From IMG/VR virus record IMGVR_UViG_3300045132_000109, positions 1 to 36,959 of that record: DNA of 36,959 nucleotides; one strand, 5' to 3'. Source of the stretch: a virus (taxonomy: Duplodnaviria; Caudoviricetes). Shown here piece after piece: positions 4,175 through 25,445 of the stretch (its first letter is position 1; each line of letters begins with the position of its first letter). The position numbers were made by a program, and so were the translations under genes. The notes under the pieces were generated by a model, which made no database searches, was not told the origin of the DNA, and was given only the letters and a program-made list of their open reading frames with translations.

Positions 4175-4216
4175 TGGTAGTCTCCTCTATTGTGGTGGTG
4201 CGGCTGGTGAGGCCGG

Positions 4217-4456
4217 TTAGGTGCAGGCTGTGTCGTCGGTGGGCCGCATATGCTCAAAGAGCACCCGCCATCGTTCTTCTTCCGACAAGCTCATGAACTG
4301 TCCGAAGGGGCTTTCTTCGTAAGCCTGCCTCTCCATCCATTCAGCGCGCTCCCGCTCGGCGCGCTCCTCTGCGCCGCATGCCGAGCAGATGCTGGATGAG
4401 ATAGGGTTCGTATGCTCTACGCCGCAAACGCGGCAGGGCGACCAGTGCCTTCTCAT
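4217..4456 (-). CDS. Zn-ribbon protein
   Basis: CRVC...CSAC; start at 4456 with ATGA overlap. Confidence 0.65.
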   Translation of the reverse strand: MRRHWSPCRVCGVEHTNPISSSICSACGAEERAERERAEWMERQAYEESPFGQFMSLSEEERWRVLFEHMRPTDDTACT

Positions 4457-4572
4457 GTCGCAGCCGCCATCAGCACGGCAAACATGCCGACGACGAACGC
4501 GGCCATGACAAGGCCGCTGATAAGGGCATGGGCGAGGTTGGCGAGGTGGCCATAAGGCTGGTGGTGGTTCAT
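4453..4572 (-). CDS. 39-aa membrane peptide
   Basis: MNHHQPYGHLANLAHALISGLVMAAFVVGMFAVLMAAAT; coupled at both ends. Confidence 0.5.
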   Translation of the reverse strand: MNHHQPYGHLANLAHALISGLVMAAFVVGMFAVLMAAAT

Positions 4573-4850
4573 GGCCGGCCCTCCGCCTTGGCGATGGCGT
4601 CATTGACGATGTCCCATTCCTCATCGACAAAGCAGCGCCAGTTGTCGCCGCCAGCTACAACCCTCATAGCCTCCAGCAACACAGGTGCGGCGGCTATCAG
4701 GCGGGCCGTTTCTTGCCGGTGCGTGGCCGCAACTTCGTGCCCTCGCTCGTCGAGCACCACATACCGCTCGTAGCCGTACTGGTGCACGGTCCAATCCAGT
4801 GCCCCATTGCGCCCCGCGCAATCTGGCACGGCGTGCTGATGGTCAGTCAT
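4569..4850 (-). CDS. Phage hypothetical protein
   Basis: ARLIAAAPVLLEA...DAIAKAEG motif common in phage early proteins; AGGAGG RBS. Confidence 0.7.
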   Translation of the reverse strand: MTDHQHAVPDCAGRNGALDWTVHQYGYERYVVLDERGHEVAATHRQETARLIAAAPVLLEAMRVVAGGDNWRCFVDEEWDIVNDAIAKAEGRP

Positions 4851-5044
4851 GCCGCCCTCCTGTCGTGGGCGTTCCACGCCGCCTCAATCTCGGCGTTCTT
4901 GTTCGCGTATCCTTCGCGCTCGTTAATGGCGCGGCAGAACAACTCCGCCGCGGCTTTACTGTGCAACGCCCCGATGGCGCGCCCGTTTTCGAGTATCTGG
5001 TAGCCTCCGCGAAACAGCGGGCGGCAGGTCATGAGGCCGCTCAT
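4847..5044 (-). CDS. Hypothetical protein
   Basis: ATGA-coupled on both sides. Confidence 0.6.
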   Translation of the reverse strand: MSGLMTCRPLFRGGYQILENGRAIGALHSKAAAELFCRAINEREGYANKNAEIEAAWNAHDRRAA

Positions 5045-5214
5045 GCCGCCGTCTCCACGCTAACGGTGCGCGGGTCGAAATCCCAATCTTCCTCATGCGC
5101 AGACAGCACCCGCTGGCGCAGCATCCGGTTAATGCGCGCAAGCTGTTGCACAAGGGCCGCGCGTTCGCGCTCAAGGCGCTGCCGCTGGCCGGGGTCAAGG
5201 TTGGTGGTGCGCAT
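5041..5214 (-). CDS. First gene of the PL operon, small coiled-coil protein
   Basis: GAGGAG RBS 7 nt upstream of the ATG at 5214. Confidence 0.6.
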   Translation of the reverse strand: MRTTNLDPGQRQRLERERAALVQQLARINRMLRQRVLSAHEEDWDFDPRTVSVETAA

Positions 5215-5245
5215 GGCGACTCTCCTCATGTGGTGTTCGGTCGCC

Positions 5246-5310
5246 TATCTATGCGTAAACGGGTAAATATGTCAACCGTAGACGCATAACAAAAATCCCG
5301 ACTGCGCATA
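5246..5310 (-). promoter_or_regulatory. PL promoter with three CI operators
   Basis: Minus-strand TTGAC-N17-CATAGAT; 15-bp sites TATGCGTAAACGGGT (5250-5264), TATGCGTCTACGGTT (rc 5274-5288), TATGCGCAGTCGGGA (rc 5296-5310). Confidence 0.75.
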
Positions 5311-5322
5311 TGAGAATCATTA

Positions 5323-5337
5323 GTTCTTGATTTGTTC
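5323..5337 (+). promoter_or_regulatory. Alphaproteobacterial LexA (SOS) box
   Basis: GTTC-TTGATTT-GTTC matches GTTC-N7-GTTC, ~50 bp upstream of the gene at 5386. Confidence 0.75.
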
Positions 5338-5385
5338 TATAATTGGAGTCACGTTGCGGCACCTCAGGCAATGAAGGAGGGCGCA

Positions 5386-5652
5386 ATGAGCGGTGCGGTG
5401 TATGTAATTCAGAGTTTCACACGCGGCGGGAAAGGGGCCTTGCGCGCCGACGCGCCGCTACAGGCGCAGAGCGTCGACCAAGCCCGTCGGCTAGCCGAGC
5501 GGCTGGCCGCGCAGAAGGCGCTCGTCGTCGCAATTGCGCGGCGTGGGGATCCATCTACTGGCGACTACGACGAGGTGGGGCTTATTGCGGCCTTCGGCGA
5601 CGTGCCGGACGAAGTGCGGGAGATGCCGCTATTTGAGGCGGCGGCTGGTTAG
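5386..5652 (+). CDS. SOS-regulated small hypothetical protein
   Basis: AAGGAGG RBS, start MSGAVYVIQSF; convergent with cI. Confidence 0.75.
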   Translation: MSGAVYVIQSFTRGGKGALRADAPLQAQSVDQARRLAERLAAQKALVVAIARRGDPSTGDYDEVGLIAAFGDVPDEVREMPLFEAAAG

Positions 5653-5673
5653 CGTGACGGCCCTACGCAGCGG

Positions 5674-6327
5674 TCAGCGCGCCTCGTACTTGCCGACGAT
5701 CCGGTGGCAGAAAGGCCAGTCTGCGCGGGTTTCCGTAAACTCACGCTCCGGGTTGTACTGCTTCAGGAACCAATCCTGGTCATTGTATCGAACGAGGCGC
5801 TTGACGATTGCCTCCGCTTCGTTCGAGCCCAGCGGCGGTACGTGATACAGCACCACGTTCTTATCGCGTGCGGGCGGCAGGTGGGGGTGAACCAGCGCCA
5901 TGTCGCCGGGTTCGAAAGCCGGGGACATCGATTCCCCGACGATATAAACGCCGTAAGCGTCCTTCACGCTTTCAAGGATAGCGGGGCGCTTCACGTAGTC
6001 GATCGCCTCAAACGTCACGATCTGATGGCCGTCCCCGCCCATCGCGGCGGCATAAACCGGGAAGTTTCGGTCTCCGACAAGCTCGGCACCGGGCACAATC
6101 TCCGGCTTGAACGGTTCAGACAAGGGGACTGGCGTCCGCATCAAAAGAGATTTGGCCGCCGGCACCGTGTCGGCCAGCGCAACAAGACGCATCAGGTTCT
6201 CGCCCCGCGTCTTGCCGCCATGCACCCAGCGGTTCACGGAAGATTGCGTAACTCCCAGCTGGGCGGCAAGGGCTTCCTCGCCGCCGAAGTGGTCAACCAG
6301 AATTTTTGTTAGTGCCGACGTGTCCAT
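5674..6327 (-). CDS. cI: CI-like repressor (XRE HTH + S24 peptidase)
   Basis: HTH LAAQLGVTQSSVNRW; cleavage region AAAMGG; catalytic GESMSP and IVKRL; ATG at 6327 has no RBS (possibly leaderless). Confidence 0.9.
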   Translation of the reverse strand: MDTSALTKILVDHFGGEEALAAQLGVTQSSVNRWVHGGKTRGENLMRLVALADTVPAAKSLLMRTPVPLSEPFKPEIVPGAELVGDRNFPVYAAAMGGDGHQIVTFEAIDYVKRPAILESVKDAYGVYIVGESMSPAFEPGDMALVHPHLPPARDKNVVLYHVPPLGSNEAEAIVKRLVRYNDQDWFLKQYNPEREFTETRADWPFCHRIVGKYEAR

Positions 6328-6362
6328 GAAGAAAGCGCTAACGCATAGCGCGCCGCATGTAA

Positions 6363-6414
6363 AATGCATATACGGGTAAAATTGCTTGACTTGTCCACCC
6401 GTGCGCGCATATAT
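6363..6414 (+). promoter_or_regulatory. PR promoter with two CI operators
   Basis: CTTGAC(6385-6390)-N17-CATATAT; operators AATGCATATACGGGT (6363-6377) and rc TATGCGCGCACGGGT (6397-6411). Confidence 0.75.
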
Positions 6415-6474
6415 GCCATTAACCTTAACGATTAAGGTTACCGATTCGCAAACAGGAAGGGTCAATAGGGCCGC

Positions 6475-6736
6475 ACGCCGCCACCAACGACGTCACCACA
6501 AATGGGGCTGGTTATCCTAAGCGGGCAACCAGCCCACCAAAAAGCAAACGGGGCCTATTGTGCTCGACACCACTCGTTAGCACGGCCCCGTTCTGCGTAA
6601 TGGGCAGGGGGAGGAGATGTTGCCACCTATGACCCCTACCGGTCCGACTTCCCTACCAAGGCAACAATGACATGGCGTCTCACCAGCGCCATGTCAAGCG
6701 CCGCCACACCAGCGGCAACCACGAAAGAGGAGAATC
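6475..6736 (+). ncRNA. Structured PR leader RNA with multiple ACCA/ACCAC-loop hairpins
   Basis: Stems at 6475-6493, 6505-6535, 6547-6592, 6618-6666, 6668-6696 and 6700-6716; no convincing ORF. Confidence 0.55.
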
Positions 6737-6985
6737 ATGAAGCAGGGAATCAGGAAATTGCGAGCGGGCGGCGGGTCCATCCGCCAGATCGCGGCAGCAC
6801 TCGGCATCAGTTACGGTGGCGTATGCCACCATATTTACGGCAGTCGCGGGCGTAAGCGGCCGCGCGCTACGCACAACAGCGTCATCCGGCGCGTCCCGGT
6901 ACTCGGCGCTCAGGGCAGCATGTCTTGCTACGACGTTTTCGTCAGCCTGCCGCGTGTTTCGATTTTGGAGGCGGCACATGCCTAA
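6737..6985 (+). CDS. HTH protein (Cro position)
   Basis: GGSIRQIAAALGISYGGVCHH helix-turn-helix; GAGGAG RBS; first gene of the PR operon. Confidence 0.75.
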   Translation: MKQGIRKLRAGGGSIRQIAAALGISYGGVCHHIYGSRGRKRPRATHNSVIRRVPVLGAQGSMSCYDVFVSLPRVSILEAAHA

Positions 6986-7262
6986 ACCCGACGAAGACTT
7001 CATCGGCATCGGCGATGTCGTCGAGCACAAGATGAACACTAACGTCTTCGGCATCGTGATCGGCTTTGCCGGTAGCGTTGTGTACCTGCGACTGTCGCCC
7101 AGTTTGCGAGTGGCTTCCTTCCACGAATGGGAGCTGCGGCTGCTGGACGACGATGGCGGGCCCGAGCCTGACGAGCCAGCAAGGGCGGATAACGTCGTGC
7201 CGGTGGATTTCACGCGCGGCGTCAAGCTGACCAAGAACACTAAGACCAAGGGCGCGGCGTAG
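6978..7262 (+). CDS. Small SH3/KOW-like protein
   Basis: IGIGDVVEHK...GIVIGF pattern; GGAGG RBS; start at 6978. Confidence 0.65.
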   Translation: MPKPDEDFIGIGDVVEHKMNTNVFGIVIGFAGSVVYLRLSPSLRVASFHEWELRLLDDDGGPEPDEPARADNVVPVDFTRGVKLTKNTKTKGAA

Positions 7263-7312
7263 TGCCCGTAACGGCTGGCTACCAACCAGCGCAACCACAA
7301 GAGGAGATTACC

Positions 7313-8308
7313 ATGAAACTTGAAGTTGGAATGAGGGTGCGGGCGACGTACGGCGGGCTGGATCTCACGAAGGGCAGGGAATACGAGATCGTTGCAGTCG
7401 ACCCCGATGATGTAGACCTGCCAATTCGTATCCGCGACGATGCAGGTGATGTACGGTGGCTCTTTGCTGATAGCTTCGAGCCCCTCACCGAACCCACCAG
7501 CGCCGCCATAACCAACGCGCAGGACGACAAGCCGAAGTTCAAGGTGGGCGATAGGGTGCGCGCCATAAGAAGCACCGACAACGTTGAAAAGGGCGAGACG
7601 TATACCGTACTGGGTTACGCGCGCCCGACCGGTGTCGACCTCTGGGTGATGCTTGATGGTATCCGAGGCTGGACTGACGATGGATCCTACCTTGAGCAGT
7701 ACTTCGAGCCTGCCGGCCTCACCATCCAGCCGGGCAAGCACTACATCACCCGCGACGGGCGGAAGGTGGGGCCAGCAAGGCCAAGCGTCGGCACCGACTA
7801 TCCGTGGTGGGTCGGCGAGTCTACCTACACCGATAGCGGCGAGTGGCTTGATGGCTGCGAAGATGACAACGACCTCGTCGCGGAGGCGGACGAGCCCGCC
7901 AAGGCAGACAACGATTACGGTAGGTCGGTCCTAAAATTCAAGGATGGACGCCTTATCCCTGAATCATCGTCTTTCAGGATGGTCTCCGGTCCAACTCCCC
8001 GCAAGGCCATCGTTTGCCTGATCGAAAGCGGCCAGCCGAAGCCTGCGAACCTGCCACACGTTCATGCATCCACAGCAGCGGCAGAGCGTGAAGCCGCCCG
8101 CCTTGCCTCACGCCACAAGGGCAGAGAGTTCGGTGTCTACGAACTCGTTTCCAGCAAGCGCGAGGAGCCGGCGTACGAGCATGAATGGCAGCGACTAGCC
8201 GCGCGTGGAGAAAAGATCGCTGCGATCCTCCAGCTTCGGCGAGACCACAACTTCCTAAGTCTCCGCTCCGCCAAGGGCTTCGTCGAAGACTTCCTCGACG
8301 CCGCCTAA
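7313..8308 (+). CDS. Multi-domain protein: repeated SH3/KOW-like units plus a C-terminal L7/L12-CTD-like segment
   Basis: KLEVGMRVRA and KFKVGDRVRA repeats; C-terminal GEKIAAILQLR...LSLRSAKGFVE; start at 7313. Confidence 0.75.
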   Translation: MKLEVGMRVRATYGGLDLTKGREYEIVAVDPDDVDLPIRIRDDAGDVRWLFADSFEPLTEPTSAAITNAQDDKPKFKVGDRVRAIRSTDNVEKGETYTVLGYARPTGVDLWVMLDGIRGWTDDGSYLEQYFEPAGLTIQPGKHYITRDGRKVGPARPSVGTDYPWWVGESTYTDSGEWLDGCEDDNDLVAEADEPAKADNDYGRSVLKFKDGRLIPESSSFRMVSGPTPRKAIVCLIESGQPKPANLPHVHASTAAAEREAARLASRHKGREFGVYELVSSKREEPAYEHEWQRLAARGEKIAAILQLRRDHNFLSLRSAKGFVEDFLDAA

Positions 8309-8379
8309 CCAGCCCCACCAAGGCTAGCCACCACCACGGTTAGTGCGCAGCGCGCACTAGCGAGAGGAGACATGACCCT

Positions 8380-8583
8380 ATGGCTAATCACGCCAGCAAT
8401 AACGCGCACCCATACGCCACGGCGTTTACGCGCACCGGCAAACACAACATGCTCAACCGCAAGCCGTACCGCACGGCAAGCCAGAAGGCGCGGGCGCGAG
8501 CCACTGCCCGCCTTGTTGATGGGCGATATGTGTCCAGCGCGCCCGTTTCGTACCATGCCGCGCCGCGCAGGAGGGAGGGATGA
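8380..8583 (+). CDS. Basic hypothetical protein
   Basis: GAGGAG RBS; coupled to the next gene. Confidence 0.55.
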   Translation: MANHASNNAHPYATAFTRTGKHNMLNRKPYRTASQKARARATARLVDGRYVSSAPVSYHAAPRRREG

Positions 8584-8777
8584 GCAAGACCAAGATTGAC
8601 CTGCCGCTCGGCTGCTTCCTGCCGTTCCTAGCGCTCATGCTGTCTACAATCCCGGCGTGGCTGACGCATATCTACGTGTGCTTCACGACGGAGGCGTGGG
8701 GCTTTCTGATCGCAGGCGCAATCTTCGCGCCCGTCGCCGTGGTTCACGGCTGGGGCATTTGGTTGGGGGCGTGGTGA
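8580..8777 (+). CDS. Small membrane protein
   Basis: Two hydrophobic segments; GGAGGG RBS. Confidence 0.7.
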   Translation: MSKTKIDLPLGCFLPFLALMLSTIPAWLTHIYVCFTTEAWGFLIAGAIFAPVAVVHGWGIWLGAW

Positions 8778-8977
8778 TGAATGTCCACGTCAAACCTCCA
8801 GCGTCCCCATGGTCCAACTACCCACCCGACTACGCCACCAACGACGTACCTCCGGAGGAAGATCACGACGAGCCGTACAGCAGCGGCTTGTGGGCGGGTG
8901 TCGCGCTAACTGGCGCGTTCGTCGTGCTGGTGCTGGCGGCGTTTGCAATCAAGGAGATGATGACATGGGTGATTTGA
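8777..8977 (+). CDS. Small membrane protein
   Basis: C-terminal TM helix; TGATG coupling. Confidence 0.6.
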   Translation: MNVHVKPPASPWSNYPPDYATNDVPPEEDHDEPYSSGLWAGVALTGAFVVLVLAAFAIKEMMTWVI

Positions 8978-9180
8978 ACAGCGGTGTGGCAGGCTTGACC
9001 GCCGAAGAACGCGAGTTCCGGGACGATGCGGCGTTGGCGGCTTTGTCTGGATTGTTGGCCGGTAGGGATACGGGCAAGACCGCACCGTCGCCGGAAACCT
9101 ACGCCGTAGCGTCTTACGCGGTCGCCGACGCCATGCTCGCCGCTCGCGTTGCTACCAGTGGCAGCGGTAGCAACCAATGA
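8965..9180 (+). CDS. Phage hypothetical protein
   Basis: RDDAALAALSGLLA...SYAVADAMLAAR motif; AAGGAG RBS. Confidence 0.7.
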   Translation: MGDLNSGVAGLTAEEREFRDDAALAALSGLLAGRDTGKTAPSPETYAVASYAVADAMLAARVATSGSGSNQ

Positions 9181-9449: not shown

Positions 9450-9488
9450 CCGGCCTACCAAGCCGGCACCACAACAAGAGGAGATACT

Positions 9489-10265
9489 ATGGCTATCAGC
9501 CTTAGCAGCCTGAAATCCACCAAGCGAAACGACCCGCCCGTTATGCTTTTGTATGGCGTGGACGGCATAGGCAAGACCAGCCTTGCCGCCGAGTTCCCGA
9601 ACCCGATCTATCTCGGCACGGAAGGCGAGCGCCCACCGTCCGACATTGAACTTGCCACGCCGGGCGTCATCACCGATCTGAACGACGTTTTCGGCGTGTT
9701 CGAGGAACTGCTAACCACGGAACACGGGTTTCAGACCGTCATCATTGACTCGCTAGACGGGCTGGAGCCGCTGGTTTGGCGGGCGACGTGCGCCAGGCTC
9801 GGCGTCAACAGCATTGAAGAACCGGGATACGGTCGCGGGTACATCGAGGCCGATGCCGAGTGGTCGGAATACCTGTCGGCGGTTGGCGCGCTGGCCGTGG
9901 CGGGTATCAACGTCGTGCAGCTGGCCCATCCGGAAATCGTGCGGTTCGACTCGCCAACCAGCGACCCATACAGCCGCTACACCGTCAAACTGAACAAGCG
10001 CGCCAATGCGCTCGTCCGCGAGCGGGCCGATATTGTCGGCTTTCTCAACTACCGCATTTCGCTGAAGGAAAAGGAGGTCGGCCACAAGAAGACCGTCACC
10101 CATGCCGAGGGGGGCAAGGAGCGGCAGATCCACCTGAATGAAGGCGCCGGCTTCGTGGCGAAGAATCGCTTTTCCATGCCGGACACGGTCACTTACCGCA
10201 AGGGCAAGGGGTACGAGGAGCTTTCCAAATACTGGCTGCCGGCGGAAGCGAAGGAGGCGGCGTGA
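9489..10265 (+). CDS. Sak4-like AAA_24 ATPase (ssDNA annealing/recombinase)
   Basis: Walker A YGVDGIGKTS, Walker B VIIDSLD, GYGRGY, AKNR. Confidence 0.85.
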   Translation: MAISLSSLKSTKRNDPPVMLLYGVDGIGKTSLAAEFPNPIYLGTEGERPPSDIELATPGVITDLNDVFGVFEELLTTEHGFQTVIIDSLDGLEPLVWRATCARLGVNSIEEPGYGRGYIEADAEWSEYLSAVGALAVAGINVVQLAHPEIVRFDSPTSDPYSRYTVKLNKRANALVRERADIVGFLNYRISLKEKEVGHKKTVTHAEGGKERQIHLNEGAGFVAKNRFSMPDTVTYRKGKGYEELSKYWLPAEAKEAA

Positions 10266-10597: not shown

Positions 10598-10649
10598 CCC
10601 ACCACCCGCGCTGCACCAGCAGCACCACCACCACAGCAGGAGATGACTA

Positions 10650-11246
10650 ATGGCCAAACTGGCTACCCGATTCAATGCGCAGGACCATGATACCGAGCAG
10701 CGCGATTACGAAGAACTCCCGAACGGCACTTACGAACTTGAAGTCGAGGCGTCCGACGTCACGCCCACCAAGGACGGACGCGGCACCATCCTGAAAACCA
10801 CGATGGTCGTGCTGCGGCCCGAGGAATACGAAAAGCGCAAGCTGTTCAACAATTTCAACCTCGAAAACCCGAACGTCCAAGCGCAGGAGATCGGTCAGCG
10901 GCAGTTCGCCAGCCTGTGCCGCGCCATCGGCGTGCAGGAAGTGGAAGACAGCGAGGAGCTGCACTTTAAAGCGTTCACCGCCAAGATCGGCTTGGGGCGC
11001 CCAAGCAAGGACGGGCAGTATCCGGCCCGTGCCGAGATTAAGAAGTATTTCTTCCCGGATCAGGGCGACGTGCCGGAGCCCGCAATCGACGCTGATCAGC
11101 CCAAGGCTGCCAACGACAACCGCCCTGCTGCGCGGCAGGCCGCAAACAGCAATAGCCGCGCGACCCCGGCGCGCGCTGCTGCTGGCGGTAAGTCTCGCCC
11201 ATGGGGGCAGAGAAGCAACACGGTCGACGACGACATTCCGTTCTGA
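10650..11246 (+). CDS. ssb: Single-stranded DNA-binding protein (DUF669-like)
   Basis: Follows the Sak4-like gene; LPNGTYELEV N-terminus; acidic DDDIPF tail. Confidence 0.8.
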   Translation: MAKLATRFNAQDHDTEQRDYEELPNGTYELEVEASDVTPTKDGRGTILKTTMVVLRPEEYEKRKLFNNFNLENPNVQAQEIGQRQFASLCRAIGVQEVEDSEELHFKAFTAKIGLGRPSKDGQYPARAEIKKYFFPDQGDVPEPAIDADQPKAANDNRPAARQAANSNSRATPARAAAGGKSRPWGQRSNTVDDDIPF

Positions 11247-11305
11247 CGCCATCCAAGGGCCGTCGTTACCGCGGCGGCCCACTTCCGCCACAAGAGGAGA
11301 TAACC

Positions 11306-11722
11306 ATGAAGAAGCTTTTGCTCGCCGCCATGCTCGCGGTCACCGCAGCAGTTGCGGGCTGTTTCAGCGATGCAACGGTCGCCACTGAGAATATCAAACG
11401 CGCCGCCGACAACTTTGAGATTACGCGGCGCGTAGTTTTCTACAACGGCATCACGGATAGCTACATGCTGTCGGTGGAAGGCCGCTGTTCGATGGACCTC
11501 AACTCCAGCGGCACGGCGTTCAACGTCATCTGCAAGACCGGCCCAAGCGACTACAAGCGCCACACGCTGGTGCTGTCCGACAATACCAGCGCCTTCGTGG
11601 AGCAGTTGGAAAGCGCGAATGTCAGCGCCTACCACTACCGCGTGATCTTCAAGCCGCAAACCATCCTGCCGGACATCGACTTCCGGGGCGGCGCTGGCGA
11701 ACTGACGACGAACCGCAACTAA
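11306..11722 (+). CDS. Phage lipoprotein
   Basis: Signal peptide with lipobox VAGC; ADNFEITRRVVFYNGITD conserved-looking block. Confidence 0.75.
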   Translation: MKKLLLAAMLAVTAAVAGCFSDATVATENIKRAADNFEITRRVVFYNGITDSYMLSVEGRCSMDLNSSGTAFNVICKTGPSDYKRHTLVLSDNTSAFVEQLESANVSAYHYRVIFKPQTILPDIDFRGGAGELTTNRN

Positions 11723-11776
11723 CACACCAACGGCGGCTGGTTGCTACCCGCAACTGGCCGCCAGTCGGAGGATGAT

Positions 11777-11950
11777 ATGGACGAAAGAAAGGACGTGTGG
11801 CTGCTCGACGTTAAGCGCGAGTCCACGCTGAAAGTTGTGTTCGGGGAGCCGCTTACGAAAGCGGAAGCTATCGCGGCATTCGACGCTGACGAGCATGAAG
11901 ACGTTCTCGATGAAGAAGACTTCGGCACCGAGGTAGTCGGCGCTCGCTAA
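11777..11950 (+). CDS. Small acidic protein
   Basis: GGAGG RBS; start MDERKD at 11777. Confidence 0.6.
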   Translation: MDERKDVWLLDVKRESTLKVVFGEPLTKAEAIAAFDADEHEDVLDEEDFGTEVVGAR

Positions 11951-12033
11951 CACCACCAGCTGCCCCTTGTTGCCCCGCAACATCGGGCAGCCACCGCCCC
12001 ACCAAGGCGACCACCACATAGAGGAGACACACC

Positions 12034-13086
12034 ATGCGCCTATCCTTGCCCCGCCAAGACCTGACGCGGCTGCTGACCGCCGTGACCAAGGTTGTCGAAG
12101 CACGCTCAACGATTCCAATTCTCGGCAACGTGCTGCTGTCCGTCCAAGACGGCCAGTTTAGCGCCCGCGCGACCGACCTCGATATTGAAGTGTCCACCAG
12201 CATTCCCGTACTCGACGCCACGAACGGCAGCACGACCGTCAACGCCAAGCTGCTGGCCGACATTGCCAAGCGTGCGGCGGGCGACGTTTCGCTAGAGCTT
12301 GCGGACGGCACCCTGACGGTGAAATCTGGCCGCTCCCGCTTCAAACTGGCCACGCTGCCCGTCGAGGACTTTCCGTCGTTTTCCGCTGGCGACTTCACCG
12401 CCAGCTTTGACGTCGATCTGGCGGCGCTGGTTGCACCGTGCGCGTTCGCGATCAGCACAGAGGAAACCCGCTATTATCTCAATGGCGTCTATTTCCACAC
12501 CGCCGAAGGCCGGCTTGCGGCGGTTGCGACGGATGGCCATCGGCTTAGCCGTCACTATGGAGACCCGCTCGACCATTTCGACGGCGTCATCCTCCCACGC
12601 AAGCTGGTCAGCATCCTGCCGAAAGGCAACGTCCACGTGTCATTGTCGACCACAAAGGTCCGCATCGCCACACAAGACACCGTAATCACCTCCAAACTGA
12701 TCGACGGCACGTTCCCCGACTATCAGCGCGTTATCCCCACCGCCAACGACAAGATCGTGCTGGCTTCCATTGCCGACCTTCGCAGCGCAGTCGAGCGCGT
12801 GTCGACCGTCGCCACAGAGCGCGGGCGTGCGGTCAAACTGGACATTGCGCCGGGTCAAATCGGGCTGTCTGTGCGCGGCGACGCCGAGGCAACTGACGTG
12901 GTGGAGGCTGACTACAGCGGTGAGCCGATAGAAATTGGCTTTAACGCGGCTTACATCAGCGAACTGCTGGCGAACCTGGCCGGCGACACTGTGCGGATTG
13001 CGCTGAACGATGGTGGCTCGCCCACGATATTTACGGGCGGGGATGACGGGGTGTTGGTAGTGTTGATGCCCATGCGGGTCTCGTGA
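12034..13086 (+). CDS. dnaN: DNA polymerase III beta sliding clamp (phage-encoded)
   Basis: TIPILGNVLL, ATDLDI, STEETRYYLNGVYF, VATDGHRL, SKLIDGTFPDYQRVIP, IGFNAAY, LMPMRV. Confidence 0.95.
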   Translation: MRLSLPRQDLTRLLTAVTKVVEARSTIPILGNVLLSVQDGQFSARATDLDIEVSTSIPVLDATNGSTTVNAKLLADIAKRAAGDVSLELADGTLTVKSGRSRFKLATLPVEDFPSFSAGDFTASFDVDLAALVAPCAFAISTEETRYYLNGVYFHTAEGRLAAVATDGHRLSRHYGDPLDHFDGVILPRKLVSILPKGNVHVSLSTTKVRIATQDTVITSKLIDGTFPDYQRVIPTANDKIVLASIADLRSAVERVSTVATERGRAVKLDIAPGQIGLSVRGDAEATDVVEADYSGEPIEIGFNAAYISELLANLAGDTVRIALNDGGSPTIFTGGDDGVLVVLMPMRVS

Positions 13087-14556: not shown

Positions 14557-15183
14557 CTACACCAAGTCGGGCATGAACTGGCGGAGGAAATCCTTTCGTT
14601 CGTTTATAGCTTTCGCTAGATCACGGGCGGCACGCGCCTTGTCATCCCCCATCAATGGATGGCCTTCAATTACCCAATCTAATAGCCCTCGATTCCCACC
14701 ATCTTCGGGGTACTTCGTGCCGTCGTTAACAACCGAACTAAGGACGTGGAAGGCATCGATGATATGTGGGCTTTTTGATTTGGCCACAGCCTCGATATCG
14801 TTGGCGGAAATCTTACGACGGCCGGAGCCAAGGATAAAATCGTACAATCCACCGTGCCGGTAGGAGTTGGCGATTTCCGTCGCGACCTGAAGTCCTTCGA
14901 GTTCATCCCGGAAATTCAACTTCATGGTAGCGGCGTGCTGGCGCCGAGACTCGTTGACTTGGCCCACCGCTACCGCGACAGCAAATATTACGAATCCGCT
15001 TCCGATTAGGGTCTGATACCGCTCAATCCAATAGTCATAAGCGCCATGAGGCGCCTCAATGTTTTCGTTGGGCTTGGTCCCCCATATTGAACCAAGAACT
15101 GAAGCGAGGATGAACGTGTAGATCACTAGCGCCATAGTAACCACTGCGCTCGATCGTTCACCACTCATCGGAAATAATTTCAC
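14557..15183 (-). CDS. Membrane-anchored moron protein
   Basis: Antisense to the operon, AT-richer, two TM segments; GTG start with GGAGGG RBS. Confidence 0.7.
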   Translation of the reverse strand: MKLFPMSGERSSAVVTMALVIYTFILASVLGSIWGTKPNENIEAPHGAYDYWIERYQTLIGSGFVIFAVAVAVGQVNESRRQHAATMKLNFRDELEGLQVATEIANSYRHGGLYDFILGSGRRKISANDIEAVAKSKSPHIIDAFHVLSSVVNDGTKYPEDGGNRGLLDWVIEGHPLMGDDKARAARDLAKAINERKDFLRQFMPDLV

Positions 15184-16855: not shown

Positions 16856-16918
16856 GGCCGACCAACTGGCCACACCGCCGGGCAACCAACCCGGATAACC
16901 ACGAAGAGGAGATGAAGC

Positions 16919-17314
16919 ATGACGACAGCAAGCGCACTATTCCCTGCGCAGTACGTTTCCAAGACGGCGTCCGAGCGCATCAAGTGCGTTGAGCGGCAAC
17001 GTTCTGAGGCGCGCGAAGAGCGCATTAAGAAGATAATGGAAACGCCAATAATCAGCGGTTTCCTATGGTGTAGAAAGGAGCGATTGCCGTCGCGAGAGAA
17101 GGCGGAGGCCATCTACGTGACTCCGATACATTACTTTTCGCCCAAGCAGCATGTGGAGCGCGACCACAACTTCACTCTCAGCAAGTTGCGTCCGCTTCTT
17201 CGGCTTTCGCGGGCGGCGGAAGAAGCCAATCCAACGGCGGCAACATTTGTTTCGCTAACCGCAGCAGACTGCCGCGTCCTTGACATTCCGTCCAACTTGG
17301 GAGTCTCGGCATGA
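16919..17314 (+). CDS. Hypothetical protein
   Basis: GAGGAG RBS; coupled to the next gene. Confidence 0.7.
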   Translation: MTTASALFPAQYVSKTASERIKCVERQRSEAREERIKKIMETPIISGFLWCRKERLPSREKAEAIYVTPIHYFSPKQHVERDHNFTLSKLRPLLRLSRAAEEANPTAATFVSLTAADCRVLDIPSNLGVSA

Positions 17315-17823: not shown

Positions 17824-17894
17824 CACCCGCCTAGTTGTGCCCCGCACAACCACCATACACGGCTACCAACCATGCACCACAATGAGGAGATGAT

Positions 17895-18713
17895 ATGCGC
17901 ATTGAACGCATTGGCGATACCGTTTTGTACAACGGCGATTGCCTTGAGGTTATGGCGACGTTGGAACCTGTGGATCACGTCATAAGTGATCCGCCGTATG
18001 AAGAAAGCCTTCACGCATCGAAGAATAGCCTGCGCGGACGGGTCCGCGCAGATAAGGGTCCAGATCTGAAAGGGCTGGATTTTTCGTCCATCAATGACAT
18101 TCGGGCCGACGTTGTGTCTGCCGCCGAGCGTATTTGCGAAGGCTGGTTCATCGCCTTCTGCACTATTGAGGGTGTCGCCTATTGGGCCGAAGCCATCAAC
18201 GCATCGCCCATGAAATACAAGCGCGGCTGCCTATGGGTAAAGCCCGACGCAACGCCACAACTTAATGGGCAGGGGCCAGGTCAGGGCGCGGAGTGCTTCG
18301 TCACAGCATGGAACGGCAAAGGCCACGCGCGCTGGAACGCGGGTGGCAAGCGTGGCGTCTATACGCACCTGACCAATCAGCGCGACCGTGATGGTAGACA
18401 TCCGACCGAAAAGCCAATCCCGCTCATGGCGGAGCTGCTGGCCGACTTCACTAATGCCGGCGACACCATTCTAGACCCGTTCATGGGCTCCGGCACAACC
18501 GGCGTCGCCTGCGCACGAATGGGGCGAAAGTTCATCGGCATCGAGTTGGATCCGCGCTATTTCGACATCGCCTGCGTGCGTATCGAAAAGGCTTATGCGC
18601 AGGGCGATATGTTTGTGGAGCGGCCCAAAAAGGAAAAGCCTGCGTCGCTCTTTGGGGATAACGACAATTCTGCTCCCGGGCAAGCAGGTGCGGCAGACGG
18701 GCGGGCAGCCTAA
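17895..18713 (+). CDS. DNA N6-A/N4-C methyltransferase, beta class
   Basis: GDCLEVM, DPPY, HPTEKP, LDPFMGSGTTG, FIGIELD. Confidence 0.92.
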   Translation: MRIERIGDTVLYNGDCLEVMATLEPVDHVISDPPYEESLHASKNSLRGRVRADKGPDLKGLDFSSINDIRADVVSAAERICEGWFIAFCTIEGVAYWAEAINASPMKYKRGCLWVKPDATPQLNGQGPGQGAECFVTAWNGKGHARWNAGGKRGVYTHLTNQRDRDGRHPTEKPIPLMAELLADFTNAGDTILDPFMGSGTTGVACARMGRKFIGIELDPRYFDIACVRIEKAYAQGDMFVERPKKEKPASLFGDNDNSAPGQAGAADGRAA

Positions 18714-19535
18714 TGGCCAAGCTCACCAGAGCCCAAGCCAAGTCGCACGCGGCCGCCGTAGAGCGTCTTCAGCAAGACCACCTGACCGAAGATGACAAGG
18801 AATTCGTTTATCGAAACTGGAACGAAGGCGCGAACCATGTCAACGGTGCGGCTGGTGCGTTCTTCACACCGTTCGACATGGCGTTCGACTTCGCGATCGA
18901 TGCTGGAGGCGGGGCGAGTAATCGACCTGTGTTCCGGCATTGGCATGCTGTCGTATGCAGTTTGGCAACGCAGCCGGTTCAACCACCGCAGACCACAGAT
19001 TACCTGTGTCGAGCGTAACGCGGATTACGTCGAGGTCGGCCGCAAACTGCTGCCAGAAGCAACGTGGATCTGCGCGGATGTTCTGGGCGTGCTCGACATG
19101 CGTCTGGGCCACTTCGACTCTGCGATCAGCAACCCACCTTTCGGTAACATTCGCCGCACCAAAAACAGTCCACGCTACGCAGGCAAAGACTTCGAGTTTC
19201 ACGTCATCGACATAGCGGCGCACCTTGCCGACTACGGAACGTTCATCGTCCCGCAGATGTCGGCTGGCTTCAACTTTTCGGGGCGGCCAAACTATGAGCG
19301 CCAAACAGGCGGGCGTGCCGTGGCCTTCCAGGAACTGACCGGCCTTCACTTTGATGCTGGCTGTGGCGTCGATACGGCGCTCTACAAGGACGAGTGGAAG
19401 GGGGTGTCGCCTATTTGCGAGATCGTCTGCGTCGACTTCACCGAAGCGCGGCCTGTTGCTGCCAAACAACCCGCTGCTGCAAACGACAATCAGCCGCAGG
19501 CCGACCTATTCGGAGCTACCCATGGCGCAGCATGA
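18713..19535 (+). pseudogene. N6-adenine methyltransferase (NPPF) interrupted by a frameshift near 18911-18914
   Basis: GAFFTP in the frame starting at 18713; VIDLCSGIG and NPPF in another frame; removing one G from GGGG joins them. Confidence 0.8.
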
Positions 19536-19848
19536 ACCGACAACCTGCCACGTCTGCGGCCGCCACGCCATAGGCATTGGCGTAGGCAAACCACCCAACG
19601 ACCCCCGGTGGCTGTGCGCCGAATGTGTACCGCTGCTGGAATACGTCAAGTCGGTGCGCCGATGGGATGCCTATGAGGTGAAGGCGCTTGACGCAGTGGA
19701 TGACGCCACGGGCGACTTTGCCGCCGAGCACGGCACGGACATTGCGGCCTATGACGATGTAACCCGCCGCGCCCTATGGCGGTGCGCGATACAGGCGCAT
19801 CAGGACGGTATTCGGCGGCTGATAACGGATGGGGATGCCCCCTTCTAG
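19522..19848 (+). CDS. Zn-finger hypothetical protein
   Basis: CHVC...CAEC; ends DGDAPF; GGAG RBS. Confidence 0.7.
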   Translation: MAQHEPTTCHVCGRHAIGIGVGKPPNDPRWLCAECVPLLEYVKSVRRWDAYEVKALDAVDDATGDFAAEHGTDIAAYDDVTRRALWRCAIQAHQDGIRRLITDGDAPF

Positions 19849-20093
19849 TCGGCAAGTATGCCCGCCTCTTTCGCCACAGCCGCAAACGCCTTGCGGGCCT
19901 TGTAGAGCAGCGCAGGGTCATCGGCCCCACCCTCCAGCGCGGCGAGCAACACCTCACGCGCGGCCAGCGTGTCCGTAACTGGCCACAGTTCATCGTCGAG
20001 CAGAAGGCGTGCCGCCTCCTCGGCCGACGACACAACCTGCCTGGCGTTGCTGCCAACCCAGATCGAGACAGGAGTTTTGAACCAATGACGCAT
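19845..20093 (-). CDS. DUF982 family protein
   Basis: WFKTPV...SSAEEAARLL..WP...ARKAFAAVAKEAGIL pattern. Confidence 0.7.
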   Translation of the reverse strand: MRHWFKTPVSIWVGSNARQVVSSAEEAARLLLDDELWPVTDTLAAREVLLAALEGGADDPALLYKARKAFAAVAKEAGILAD

Positions 20094-21440: not shown

Positions 21441-23643
21441 CCCCGCACCCACAGACCCCATGCTCGACCTCGCCCTGCACTATGCCGCGCAGGGCTGGCC
21501 GGTATTCCCCTGCCGTGCCGCCGACGATTATGACCCCGAAACCGGCGAAGTCCTGCCGGAGAAGGCACCGCTTATCAGCAACGGCTTCCGCGGCGCCACG
21601 CTTTCGGAGAGGATCATCCGCGAGCTTTGGAAGCGCAACCCCGGCGCTCTCGTTGGCATCCCGACCGGTGAGCGCACTGGTGTTTGGGTGTTGGACCTGG
21701 ACATCAAGGCAAGCGCCAACGGCCACGAATGGCTTGCCGCGATGGAGGCCGCCCACGGCGACCTCCCAAACAGCGCCCGCGTCCAGACGGCCAATGGCGG
21801 CACGCATATCTTCTTCCGGCACGTTGAAGGCGTCCGTAACCGCGGCAAGCTTGGTGATGGCGTCGATGTTCGGGGCGAGGGTGGCTTTGTCATTGCGGGT
21901 GGCAGCTCTATGGCGGATGGCCGTGCCTATCATTGGCTCGGCGACACCGGCCCGGACGACACAGTGGGCGCGCCGCAATGGTTGCTCGATCTTGTTTTGC
22001 CGCCTGTCCACACCCATCATGCGGGCGATTGGCATTACGAGGCGGGTAGCAATGACCGGTATGTCAATCGCGCCATGGAGTCGGAACTGTCCGAACTGGC
22101 AGGCACGCCGCCGGGCAATCGCGGCTACCAGCTCAACGCTTCGGCATTTGCGCTCGGGCAACTGGTGGGAGCGGGGGCCATCCACCGTAGCGAGGCCGAA
22201 CATGGTCTATACGCGGGAGCCGTGACATGCGGCGTTGCGCAGGCGGACGGTGAGCGCGAGACGTGGGCGAAAATCCGCCGCGGTCTTGATGCGGGCGAAA
22301 AGCAGCCGCGGCATATCCCGACTCCGCAGGCGGAAAACGACAACACACGCTTGGTCGACATCAAGAAGATGCTGGAACGGGCGCGTGAAAAAGCCGCGAA
22401 GAAAGCAGCCAAGGGACCGGCCGATGACGAGCCAGAGGTTGCGGTAGAGCCCACGCCTGCACCTGCGGACCCCACGCTGCCCGTCACCGAGGACGACACA
22501 CCCTTCCGTTTCACACCCTTTTCGTGGAAAGACCCCGCAAGCTTGCCGCGGCGCGAGTTCGCGTTCGGCAAGCATTACATTCGCAAATACGTGTCGGTGA
22601 CGGTCGCGCCGGGCGGTTTGGGCAAAACCAGCAACAGCGTCGTCGAGGCATTGTCCATGGCGTCCGGGCGCGACCTGACGGGCGACAAGCCGCCCAAGCG
22701 TCTCAAGGTGTGGCTGTTCAATGCGGAAGACCCTCGCGATGAAATGGACAGGCGGATCATGGCTGCGTGCCTGCACTATGGTCTATCGCCTGCCGACATC
22801 GAGGGGCATCTGTTTCTCGATACCGGGCGCGAGCAGGAGCTTATCGTCATGCACGAGGACCGAAAGGCCGGCGTGACGGTCAATGTGCCTATCGTGGAGG
22901 CCGTGGCAGAGCAAATCCGCCGCAACAAGGTCGATGTGCTGATCGTAGATCCGTTTGTTTCGACGCACCGCGTCAACGAGAATGACAACGGCGCAATCGA
23001 CAAGGTTGCAAAACTCTGGGCGCAGATCGCCGATGACACCAACTGCGCAATCGACGTGGTGCATCATCTGCGGAAACTCGCCGATCGTGAGGCAACCGTG
23101 GAAGACGCCCGCGGCGCTATCTCGCTGATTGGTGCGGCTCGTTCGGTGCGCGTGCTGAACCGCATGTCTGTCGAAGACGCCAATGCTGCGGGCATCGACG
23201 TTAAGGACCGCTACAGTTACTTCCACATTCATTACGGCAAGCAGAACCTGACCCGCATGGATACGACGCAACATTGGCGGAAGATGGTATCGGTCGGGCT
23301 GGGCAACGGCGGAAAAGGGCTTCTGGCGAAAACGCAGCAGGACACCGCTGGCGTTGTGACGGCGTGGAAGTGGCCGACAACCGAAGAAATAGTTAGCGAT
23401 CTGACTGCCGAGCAGATCGACAACATCAAGTCGGTGTTGCGCGGGCAGGCGTACAAGGCAGCCCCGCAGGGCAAGCCGTGGGCGGGTGAGGCGATAGCCT
23501 ATGTGTTGGGCGAGGACGCCGCGGACAAGGCCACCAGAAAGCGCGTAGGGTCGCTCCTGAAGGCCCTTATGAAAGAGGGCATTTTGGAACAGGTAGAGGA
23601 CCGTGATCCGGTCAGCCGGTCGGCCATGAAAGTGGTCAGATAA
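21430..23643 (+). CDS. Bifunctional primase-polymerase fused to an AAA_25 helicase
   Basis: GWPVFPC, LDLD, GGTHIFF, DVRGEGGFV; Walker A APGGLGKT, IVDPF, VVHH; TTG start with AGGAGG RBS. Confidence 0.9.
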   Translation: MQPNPAPTDPMLDLALHYAAQGWPVFPCRAADDYDPETGEVLPEKAPLISNGFRGATLSERIIRELWKRNPGALVGIPTGERTGVWVLDLDIKASANGHEWLAAMEAAHGDLPNSARVQTANGGTHIFFRHVEGVRNRGKLGDGVDVRGEGGFVIAGGSSMADGRAYHWLGDTGPDDTVGAPQWLLDLVLPPVHTHHAGDWHYEAGSNDRYVNRAMESELSELAGTPPGNRGYQLNASAFALGQLVGAGAIHRSEAEHGLYAGAVTCGVAQADGERETWAKIRRGLDAGEKQPRHIPTPQAENDNTRLVDIKKMLERAREKAAKKAAKGPADDEPEVAVEPTPAPADPTLPVTEDDTPFRFTPFSWKDPASLPRREFAFGKHYIRKYVSVTVAPGGLGKTSNSVVEALSMASGRDLTGDKPPKRLKVWLFNAEDPRDEMDRRIMAACLHYGLSPADIEGHLFLDTGREQELIVMHEDRKAGVTVNVPIVEAVAEQIRRNKVDVLIVDPFVSTHRVNENDNGAIDKVAKLWAQIADDTNCAIDVVHHLRKLADREATVEDARGAISLIGAARSVRVLNRMSVEDANAAGIDVKDRYSYFHIHYGKQNLTRMDTTQHWRKMVSVGLGNGGKGLLAKTQQDTAGVVTAWKWPTTEEIVSDLTAEQIDNIKSVLRGQAYKAAPQGKPWAGEAIAYVLGEDAADKATRKRVGSLLKALMKEGILEQVEDRDPVSRSAMKVVR

Positions 23644-23696
23644 ACACCAAAAAAACAGGCCAGAAAACACCCCAAAACCGGTCAACCGTACTGCTG

Positions 23697-23823
23697 AGTT
23701 CTGCGCAGAGTTTGCGCAAAGTTCTCGAAATCGGACATGCACAACTTTGCAGACTTATACCCTTATATGGGTAAGTCTGCGGTGTTGTCTGCGGCAGTGT
23801 AGAAGTCTGCAAGAACTCTGCAC
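23697..23823. repeat. Clustered (A)GTCTGC/TTTGC repeats, putative replication origin
   Basis: TCTGCGCAGA and TTTGCGCAAA palindromes; inverted GCAGACTT (23749-23756) / AAGTCTGC (23773-23780) around an AT-rich core; further copies to 23822. Confidence 0.45.
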
Positions 23824-23846
23824 TCAACTAAAAAATGGAGGTCCAT

Positions 23847-24353
23847 TTGGTACCCAAAAACACCACCACTCAAACAGTGCGCATCGCCGGCGTGCGCACC
23901 AAGCTGACAACCCGCAATGGGCGCGTCACCGCCAAGTCCGTCGGCGAGGTTGAATGGAAGCTACAAGCCGCTGCCGTTCGCGCGCTCCGCGCCATGCCGG
24001 AATTTGGTCGACAGTTCCTGTTGGCTGGAGACATGGCCAGCGGGAAGCGTGGTCCCAAAGCGCAGATGCAGGCGCTGGCAACAGGGCTGACGCCGGGCGA
24101 CCCGGACCTTAGGGTCTATCTACCGGCGGGCCGGGTCGCGTTCATCGAGTACAAGACTAGCACTGGCCGTCTGTCGCCGGTGCAGAAACAGCGACATGCC
24201 GATATGGAGCGGCTGGGCCACGCCGTCGAGGTGGTGGCGACTGTTACCGAGGAAGAGTGCGCCGCTGCTACGGTTGCGCTGGTGCGCGGGTGGTTGGCAG
24301 GCAACAGCAACCAGCAGAACGCCGCCCATAGCGAAATAACGCTTGCATCATGA
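23847..24353 (+). CDS. VRR-NUC domain nuclease (Holliday junction resolvase-like)
   Basis: PGDPDL...FIEYKTSTGRLSPVQ; TTG 23847 after GGAGG (ATG 23835 is the alternative). Confidence 0.85.
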   Translation: MVPKNTTTQTVRIAGVRTKLTTRNGRVTAKSVGEVEWKLQAAAVRALRAMPEFGRQFLLAGDMASGKRGPKAQMQALATGLTPGDPDLRVYLPAGRVAFIEYKTSTGRLSPVQKQRHADMERLGHAVEVVATVTEEECAAATVALVRGWLAGNSNQQNAAHSEITLAS

Positions 24354-24400
24354 GGCCGAAATAATCCTTATAAGCTATCGGCCATTGCACCGATTCACTA

Positions 24401-24467
24401 CGGCCTACCAAGCCGAATGGCCTACCAAGCCGAACCCCGCTTACCAGGCGGACACCACTTAGAGGAG
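24401..24467 (+). repeat. Tandem GGCCTACCAAGCCGAA hairpin repeat plus a third ACCA hairpin before the RBS
   Basis: Direct repeats at 24402-24417 and 24419-24434; the same 14-mer occurs at 9452-9465. Confidence 0.8.
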
Positions 24468-24473
24468 ATGCCC

Positions 24474-25445
24474 TTGACCACCTACAAATCCTTCGCCGAT
24501 GCCCTGTCGGCCCCGCGCACTACGACACCGCGCCCCGCACCCGCGGCCGCCAATGACAACAAGCCACGCAAGGCCCCTCAGCCACGCTATCGCGGGACGC
24601 TGCCGGCGCTGCGCTGGCTGTACGACAACCACCCTGACCTGGCAGAACCGATGGCCCGTGCGGTGCGGTCGCTGTCAGCAACGACATGGGATGCGGACGC
24701 GGCCGATAACGATCAGAAGATTCGCCCAACCGTTGGCGAGCTTGTGAAGGCGGCGACTGATCCCAAAACGGGCGAGTGGCTACAACCGACAATCGAAACC
24801 GACAAAGACGGCAATACCAGTGTTCGGCTCGGGGCTCTGAAGTTTGTTCGCGGCGAGCTCGTCGAGTGCGGCGAGACCAAGAAAGGCCGCAAGCTGAGCC
24901 CGCGTGATAGGGTTGTTTCGAGGGACGAGGCTCCCGCAGATGCGCGCAACCCGTACCTGTACGTGTTTGGAACCAAGGCGACTACGCAGTCACCGCTTCA
25001 TGCTGAGCCCTACAGCCGCGCGTTATCCGGCGAGCCGGCACTTGCGCCGATGTATGCACCGCTTTCGGGTGTTGAGGAGGGGCGCGCCGAACTGGTCGCG
25101 CTTGGTGTCGATGGTTCTGTACCGTTCGACAAGCTGCCGTTCCCCGCAACGAAGGGCATGTCGGCTATTGCATCTGGCGCTGACTTCCTTGGTGGTATCG
25201 TCGGGTCCAGCGGTACAGCGTCCAGCGGCGCGGTGAACATGGGCGACTTGCCCGACGCGCCGAGGGGCGAGGCGAGGCTGGTCGTCGAGGCTGTCGCATC
25301 TGGCGCAACGTTGAAGGACATCGGCGAGCGGATGGGGCTCGATGGCGCGCGCGTAGATCGGGCGGCAAAGGACGCCCTTGTCAACGCTGCTCGCGCACTG
25401 GTTGCCTCGAACGATAACAGCCCGCGAAAGAAGAAAGTGGCGTAG
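24474..25445 (+). CDS. Putative late-gene regulator with C-terminal HTH
   Basis: GATLKDIGERMG HTH; Q-like position at the end of the replication module; TTG start 6 nt after GAGGAG. Confidence 0.65.
   Translation: MTTYKSFADALSAPRTTTPRPAPAAANDNKPRKAPQPRYRGTLPALRWLYDNHPDLAEPMARAVRSLSATTWDADAADNDQKIRPTVGELVKAATDPKTGEWLQPTIETDKDGNTSVRLGALKFVRGELVECGETKKGRKLSPRDRVVSRDEAPADARNPYLYVFGTKATTQSPLHAEPYSRALSGEPALAPMYAPLSGVEEGRAELVALGVDGSVPFDKLPFPATKGMSAIASGADFLGGIVGSSGTASSGAVNMGDLPDAPRGEARLVVEAVASGATLKDIGERMGLDGARVDRAAKDALVNAARALVASNDNSPRKKKVA

Follow-up and report, generated by a model that had tools for sequence, protein, structure and literature searches.

What reads a short motif that recurs, always on the mRNA strand, in front of the early genes of a temperate phage? 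The question is raised by IMG/VR record IMGVR_UViG_3300045132_000109 (the window: the whole record of 36,959 bp, as analysed here), a fragment of a temperate siphophage of the 16-3-like rhizobial type. Its early-gene leaders carry a hairpin with an ACCA-type loop, an ACCAC-type box and a Shine-Dalgarno (SD) sequence of the GAGGAG type, and a sequence-only reading had proposed that one RNA-binding protein recognises them in the manner of CsrA. Its idea of one post-transcriptional signal shared by the early genes holds as far as an RNA-level signal is concerned, but not for a protein as the reader. Inside the interval that reading had marked lies a predicted small RNA gene (6664-6539, minus strand) whose product complements and covaries with all three leader parts, a match that a CsrA-like protein would leave unexplained. 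Most likely the leaders form a regulon governed by RNA-RNA pairing and not by a protein. What the sequences show directly is the leaders themselves, a conserved RNA-like gene, its complementarity to the leaders and the covariation of the two across phages. That the RNA pairs with the leaders, by whatever kind of pairing, appears highly probable from these sequences; that it silences translation of the early genes through them is probable, at somewhat lower confidence.

Hairpin leaders of the early genes

All 12 sites listed by the sequence-only reading were found, read as described and lie on the mRNA strand, each followed by an ACCAC-type box, (G)AGGAG(A) and a start codon. An ACCA loop is present at most of them, the exceptions being 11257 and 11732, where the loops are ACC without the A. 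Strict hairpins, defined as a CNACCAA loop closed by at least 4 Watson-Crick pairs, number 6 in the window (6 on the plus strand, 0 on the minus strand) whereas 200 dinucleotide-shuffled versions have a mean of 0.065 and a maximum of 1. With a wider choice of loops, made once the data had been seen, the count is 10, as against 1.0 (maximum 4) in the shuffles, and the sole minus-strand copy falls in the leftward operon. When the leaders alone were shuffled with local composition kept, YACCA-loop hairpins averaged 0.17 (maximum 3), as against 8 of the 13 leaders observed. In the rightward operon the motif stands at the first gene and, among the 27 junctions, at 10/10 starts after gaps of 39-120 nt; it is found at 0/14 coupled starts (gap of 3 nt or less) and 0/3 starts after gaps of 204-643 nt. 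Since short-gap starts are marked and coupled starts are not, the motif labels independent translation starts.

To place these leaders among relatives we used 80 loci from viral contigs and 27 from named genomes (Ochrobactrum-type Brucellaceae, Agrobacterium, Rhizobium, Shinella, Devosia and others), each locus spanning about 10 kb either side of Sak4. In L001-L082, which supply 1050 distinct SD-start regions, CCACCAA (45) and CTACCAA (21) are the most frequent hairpin loops, and the base 5' of ACCA in 82 loops is C in 61, T in 12, A in 5 and G in 4, as pairing with G permits. The claim that structural genes lack the element stands for the starts of the window but does not extend to the boxes of its relatives. 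The major capsid leaders of 16-3 and RHph_TM3_3_14B, and the major tail leader of the latter, have CACCAC boxes and a TGGAGAC SD with no hairpin, so that the box alone is not strictly early. The check for hairpin covariation at the orthologous Sak4 leader failed: the hairpin is not conserved there but variably present, and in most relatives nothing of the leader beyond the A/C-rich box and SD has persisted.

The view of the element as an RNA-level signal is borne out by the strand flip in the leftward operon and by its confinement to prophages in five host genomes, where the leader pattern clusters inside prophages and is at background level outside them. An Rfam search of the window (E up to 1) returned tRNAs only, with no family for the leader motif. 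A DNA-level signal, Chi-like or operator, was rejected because the element tracks the mRNA strand and always lies before an SD; a host regulon was rejected for the five host genomes, in which the pattern outside prophages is only background. The leaders also share a hairpin of another kind, GTTG(C/TG)-pyrimidine loop-(G)CAAC, which recurs (11732-11762, 11969-11983 and 17833-17849); its homologue in L105, a locus lacking the RNA, has a different loop.

A predicted small RNA gene beside the repressor

We sought strands that carry a leader complement and serve no gene. One such element recurs, between the repressor and the first rightward gene. In the window it is a predicted gene of about 126 nt at 6664-6539 on the minus strand, opposite the leader with which the rightward early transcript begins and antisense to it, with its ends predicted from promoter spacing and a U-run. 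The predicted promoter (TTGACA at 6697-6692, 17 nt, CATGTC at 6674-6669) is embedded in an ACCA-loop hairpin of the opposite strand (6668-6696). Three stem-loops (SL1 to SL3) follow. SL1 (6664-6649) has the loop UUGGUAG, the complement of CUACCAA; SL2 (6640-6603) has a GCAA tetraloop and the anti-SD word AUCUCCUC (6618-6611), with CCUC unpaired; and SL3 (6596-6544) is a terminator-like stem capped by CGA-GUGGUG-UCG (loop 6573-6568) and followed by U5. The exposed UUGGUAG, AUCUCCUC and GUGGUG are the complements of the leader loop, the SD and the CACCAC box, respectively.

The same architecture is found across the relatives: an SL1 loop with UGGU; an SL2 with an outer stem, a small capped hairpin and exposed CUCCUC; and an SL3 with a long stem, a 3-bp helix on top and a GUGGUR loop, often followed by Us. 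By a strict pattern the gene is present in 79/103 loci, many of the remaining loci being cut short, and searches with hidden Markov and covariance models added L035 (weakly), L036, L046, L102, L168, L188 and L134. The same searches did not find it in L047, L050, L055, L063, L069, L071, L072, L075, L105 and L106. The copies comprise 54 distinct sequences; a -35-like hexamer lies upstream of 77 of them and is TTGACA in 76 of the 77. UUCG or GNRA closures of stems number 28 on the minus strand and 4 on the plus strand in 29 representatives; tetraloops, promoter and U-run all point to the minus strand as the RNA strand. SL1 stems differ freely between phages while the UGGU loop stays constant. At the top of SL3, 6/7 pairs show two-sided changes, and both variable pairs beneath the invariant loop show compensatory changes. 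The covariation score there is 0.354, against 0.231 when shuffled and at most 0.168 when slid, a comparison in which no more than 80% of cells pair and the outcome of the shuffle test is inflated by relatedness. In a permuted form (L049, L056/L097 and L059) the anti-SD, GUGGUG and SL3 stand in the exact antiparallel order of the leader.

Searches beyond these loci returned little. Rfam gave only sub-threshold chance matches for the RNA region of the window, 16-3 and L014 (E up to 10), and a strict promoter scan of 5200-6800 listed no promoter, that of the RNA included. A pattern scan of the viral collection returned 119 loci, mostly chance, with about 15 true RNA copies. A covariance-model search of 151 host-order genomes gave no matches; it had no working positive control, as the centre genome has the permuted form. 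A literature search, which did not reach older subscription papers on 16-3, gave no description of the small RNA or the leader.

Two sets of related elements were observed alongside. A 192-bp cassette of the RNA gene, its promoter and the next leader is 95% identical between L134:2544-2735 (genome G006) and G007:15717-15909. The two copies sit in elements of different organisation. The G006 copy adjoins head-tail genes and has almost no other target, and the setting in G007 has no match to the Sak4 or repressor of the window, yet a few ACGAGGA leaders; the cassette is possibly a mobile immunity cassette or a remnant of one. In L105 (minus strand, 6790-6680) and L050 (minus strand, 6780-6670), which have no three-domain RNA, the corresponding position still holds a TTGACA pointing leftward, several UGGU words and a hairpin resembling a terminator; these are perhaps reduced RNAs without the anti-SD.

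Covariation with the leaders and competing explanations

RNA and leaders were also compared phage by phage. Each RNA type was represented by one locus or a few, 24 loci in all, with leaders defined by AGGAG, an open reading frame and an A/C-rich stretch outside the tested positions. Where the RNA carries CUCCUCGUG, leaders read CACGAGGAG (CACGA before GGAG) in 40/49 cases, compared with 2/156 in phages without CUCCUCGUG, and the bases after GGAG are free. GUCUCC phages have GGAGAC in 83 and GGAGAT in 6 of 116 leaders; in the AUCUCC phages (the window, L035 and L102) the counts are 13 GGAGAT and 3 GGAGAC of 28. The cognate duplex beats the row and column expectation in 24/24 loci (permutation p 1e-5, or 2e-5 without the GUG type, in the 16 non-Brucellaceae-type loci alone). 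In the SSB leader of CUCCUCGUG phages, ACACGAGG is kept and the remainder of the SD decays. On the Sak4 tree the window falls among the G-type loci L009 and L107 and L035 among the GUG-type, and the leaders of each match its own RNA.

The hairpins follow the RNA as well. ACCA-loop leader hairpins occur in 23/25 RNA-bearing and 1/10 RNA-lacking loci, and loci with a GGUA rather than a GGUG loop in SL1 have a higher median share of TACC in their leaders (0.27 vs 0.07, p 0.002, 11 vs 12 loci, L035 omitted), with L089 and L011 running against the trend. Host SD usage does not explain the matching, since GAGGAGAC starts (208) and GAGGAGAT starts (198) are about equal in the five host genomes, prophages included; nine of the ten ACACGAGGA starts of genome G002 lie within a prophage.

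Several observations weigh against reading the leaders as targets of this RNA. Net seed binding after opening costs has a median of -12.1 kcal/mol for the 13 motif leaders and -1.8 for 43 other starts, but the ranking of duplexes in the window is partly circular, because the RNA was found through leader complements, and most of the starts used as controls have weak SDs. Folding of single sequences yields modest z-scores (-0.6 to -2.9), barely half of the anti-SD is predicted to be unpaired (0.47), and in the standard RNA the sites do not follow the order of their counterparts in the leader. In an RNA-library search with a relative (L083:7000-8600; 24 runs, all contigs), the four contig sets compared gave no end, strand or level, and one contig extends into the RNA promoter. 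Independent contrasts on starred branches of the Sak4 tree number only 3, 1 and 3 and none is significant, although they go the expected way (for hairpins, on average 2.5 of 3); with so few, the pooled p-values overstate the case, and the tree is that of one gene in a mosaic genome. A/C-rich ACCAC leaders persist in L063, L075 and L105, which lack the RNA, as do CACCAC boxes before the capsid genes of 16-3 and TM3_3_14B, while L035 and L046 carry the RNA with no counted hairpin. The leaders of L034 and L085 depart from their own RNA 3' of GGAG, a G-type prophage in G001 has 7 AC and 5 AT starts, and G-U outnumbers A-C in leader stems only 7 to 3.

It is possible, if unlikely, that the RNA does pair with the leaders but acts through cleavage or transcription termination, or only in cis on the PR transcript. 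P4 CI RNA and lambda OOP act through RNA cleavage or transcription termination, the RNA here complements the inferred PR leader perfectly, and hairpins 5' of each SD could shield processed 5' ends. Purely cis action, however, would have no need of distant leaders that track the RNA, and the covarying part is the SD itself.

A second explanation, which we consider improbable, keeps a protein as the reader: a phage or host protein would bind ACCA, and 6539-6664 would be read on the plus strand as an ACCA/GAGGAG decoy. The repetition of ACCA in loop and single strand suits this idea, as does a fixed loop on variable stems, which is typical of protein-binding sites, and the plus strand of 6539-6664 also folds (z -2.1). 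The promoter, U-run and tetraloops, however, are all on the minus strand, host leaders outside prophages show the pattern only at background, and a protein leaves the complementary, base-for-base changes around the SD unexplained. Neither of the proposed phage readers fared well. The ASCH protein (1929-2369) has no Pfam hit and is present in 1/35 loci, and its gene is also absent from both whole genomes; as the loci cover about 10 kb per side of Sak4, the absence of far-left genes partly reflects cover. The SH3/KOW-like products of 6978 and 7313 occur in 19/25 and 18/25 RNA-bearing loci, but also in 4/10 and 8/10 of those lacking the RNA. None of 11 window proteins searched by tblastn over the 35 loci tracks the hairpins; small proteins were covered only through these 11, so that undetected small or host proteins are possible.

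There is likewise little probability that the leaders are unstructured A/C-rich translation enhancers homogenised within each genome by recombination at gene junctions, with the RNA-like element a by-product: A/C-rich boxes do occur without the RNA, the Sak4 leader hairpin varies between relatives and the leaders lie at junctions of a mosaic genome that encodes the Sak4 recombinase, yet local shuffles do not yield the hairpins (8/13 vs 0.17), stems without common sequence are a poor recombination substrate, and on the opposite strand the RNA folds in a conserved way of its own, in which the three words lie in loops and in a different order.

Proposed mechanism, gene context and known systems

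If the RNA silences its targets by pairing, the leaders would be standardised landing sites for an RNA presumed to be transcribed from the TTGACA promoter. First contact would be made by the exposed UGGU loops, the invariant GUGGUG of SL3 meeting YACCA loops or boxes and SL1 contacting a box or loop. The SL2 anti-SD would then cover GAGGAG and block initiation at thirteen independently started early genes, and silencing would pass to the 14 translationally coupled genes. The opening costs, calculated with no kissing geometry, are 0.1 kcal/mol for the SL3 loop and 5.9 for the anti-SD.

The timing of RNA action is the least sure part of this explanation. The inferred PL (-35 at 5275) and PR (-35 at 6386) are overlapped by four sites of the ACCCGT-N4-GCATA type, near 5250, 5275, 6364 and 6397, which are putative repressor operators. 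No such site lies in the RNA promoter of the window or in a possible promoter at 24343, and on this view the lysogen would produce the RNA. There it may serve as a second lock beside CI, acting also on the CI-independent gene at 24474, until induction, when it would be titrated by the convergent PR transcript, to which it is complementary over its full length. The RNA promoter of 16-3 lies after the helix-turn-helix (HTH) gene p070 and shares a TTGACAAATTTG element with seven internal promoters; alternatively, then, the RNA may be co-regulated with internal early promoters and act as a damper during infection. Promoters with TTGACAAATTTG stand at 21503, 33887, 37056, 37779, 48798, 48949, 57198 and 57756 of NC_011103 and at 8484, 23058, 23751, 33316, 41168 and 41462 of MN988496; the family, absent from the record annotation, includes those of p070 and the RNA and is a candidate second repressor regulon. 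We offer only tentatively, as somewhat short of an even chance, the full picture of a second, RNA-based repressor system with a three-seed RNA, standardised leaders, co-evolved immunity types and release by the PR transcript on induction. Virulence of 16-3 requires mutations at avirC and avirT (PMC11292799, in the part available), and the RNA may be one locus behind these two-locus genetics.

The window runs from the integrase through the leftward operon, the CI-like repressor gene (5674-6327, minus strand) and the rightward early operon to tRNAs and head genes. The early operon encodes a Sak4 that shares 72% identity with its counterpart in Rhizobium phage 16-3, and also SSB, beta clamp, a Cas4-like nuclease, helicase, methyltransferases and primase. 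The plus-strand leaders begin before the first rightward gene (6737-6985, a weak HTH match), where 6700-6733 holds a CACACCA hairpin, box and GAGGAGAA. The leader of 7313-8308 (7274-7307) has a CTACCAA hairpin, box and GAGGAGAT, and that of 8380-8583 (8311-8370) a CCACCAA hairpin, the CACCACCAC box, a second hairpin and GAGGAGAC. Others precede the genes for the Sak4-like (leader 9450-9484, gene 9489-10265), SSB-like (10610-10643, 10650-11246) and beta-clamp proteins (11995-12027, 12034-13086), 16919-17314 (leader 16878-16912) and a DNA methyltransferase gene (17858-17890, 17895-18713). Two are variants: a TTACC loop at 11257-11300 before 11306-11722 (phrog_478), and a TACCC loop with no box at 11732-11771 before 11777-11950, the weakest predicted target. 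A triple hairpin (24401-24468), behind the possible promoter at 24343, precedes 24474-25445, a possible late activator whose product has a C-terminal sigma70-region-4-like HTH (weak match, E 0.022). On the minus strand, the leader of 3923-4174 in the leftward operon (4215-4182) has a CTCACCA hairpin, box and GAGGAGAC, and the first leftward gene (5041-5214), starting at 5214, has a box and SD (5236-5221) with the hairpin absent.

Two opposite-strand genes, 14557-15135 and 19845-20090 (both minus), sit inside the early operon; the starts that follow them have no leader motif, and the former occupies the position of sigma-70-like genes in 16-3 and TM3_3_14B. A phrog_3820 methyltransferase lies in two overlapping plus-strand frames, 18713-19018 and 18792-19535, by a frameshift that is either real or an assembly error. 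The tRNA cluster (25750-26062, plus) comprises tRNA-Gly(TCC), tRNA-Thr(TGT), tRNA-Pro(TGG) and a fourth, weak tRNA-like element (25750-25819; 26 bits in Rfam, omitted by ARAGORN). In the non-coding gap before it, 25650-25681 (plus) forms a hairpin with a CCTCCTCC stretch in the loop region and no Rfam hit, which we take to resemble the anti-SD loops of the 'cuckoo' RNAs. Among the head-tail connector genes, 34015-34626 (plus) matches phrog_4603, annotated as alpha-2,3-sialyltransferase.

Closest in working is c4 of P1 and P7, whose loops pair with sequence around the ribosome-binding site of ant and which confers heteroimmunity (PMC12197685, in the part available). The RNA here is likewise phage-encoded and structured, with loop words predicted in silico to pair around phage ribosome-binding sites, and sequence differences between phages could likewise give heteroimmunity. 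However, c4 controls an antirepressor operon, whereas the RNA here matches about 13 leaders in both early operons and, unlike c4, has its own predicted convergent promoter and terminator and three separate stem-loops. The c4 model RF01695 has no match in the regions of the window, 16-3 or L014 (E up to 1-10), no antirepressor family occurs among the 62 proteins of the window, which is a 37-kb part of the genome, and rhizobial names do not occur in the supplement of PMC12197685 as far as it was available.

Closest in anatomy are the SAS/ESAS elements of cluster K mycobacteriophages, which are likewise strand-specific extensions of the SD, precede non-structural genes and are rare in the host; the authors left open whether RNA or protein reads them (PMC3203893, in the part available). 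The same part of that paper describes conserved 17-bp inverted repeats in ESAS, in contrast to the fixed loops here on stems unrelated in sequence; here, moreover, a candidate reader covaries with the sites. The sequence also differs, and the 13-bp SAS consensus is absent from 56 start regions of the window.

Cis-antisense phage RNAs of the OOP type, P22 Sar among them, have a promoter convergent with an early transcript, and the RNA here may have one too: its TTGACA and U-run are conserved, and PR is inferred in the window and annotated in 16-3. Lambda OOP and aQ are small RNAs of the lysis-lysogeny region with such a promoter (PMC12197685, in the part available). These RNAs act on a single overlapped mRNA, whereas leaders as far as 18 kb from the RNA gene here also match its product in trans.

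CsrA/RsmA sites and the Csr/Rsm sponge RNAs combine a conserved GGA loop, a variable stem and a second site near the SD; the loops here are of the YACCA type, and a complementary RNA tracks the sites where no tested protein does. GcvB silences through C/A-rich enhancers with a G/U-rich seed, and AbcR and the cuckoo RNAs are anti-SD small RNAs of alphaproteobacteria. These share with the RNA here the use of one RNA for many targets and G/U-rich and CUCC seeds, but they are host RNAs acting on unrelated host leaders, whereas the phage leaders here are apparently standardised to one RNA. In Rfam the RNA has no match to the GcvB, AbcR or cuckoo families, and RF01723 has no hit in the window. By eye, the Rhizobiales-1 and -2 motifs differ from it in the alignment heads of PMC2864571, and in the available part of the AP-16-3 genome paper (PMC10460002) neither a hairpin or motif nor a small RNA or promoter is mentioned.

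In summary, the design is probably phage antisense control in an unusual, genome-wide form that is in neither Rfam nor the papers searched. To our knowledge, phage antisense RNAs that act on phage genes have one target or operon each. If our interpretation is correct, a single RNA would act as a master switch of translation to which its targets adapt by evolution. Such a switch would parallel, at the RNA level, a repressor with its operators and would add a new level to the control of lysogeny. Phage 16-3 with Sinorhizobium meliloti 41, a classic of genetics, allows a direct test of the model, which also hints where to seek the unknown reader of the mycobacteriophage SAS elements. Moreover, the natural types of seed and leader are candidate orthogonal riboregulators for rhizobia.

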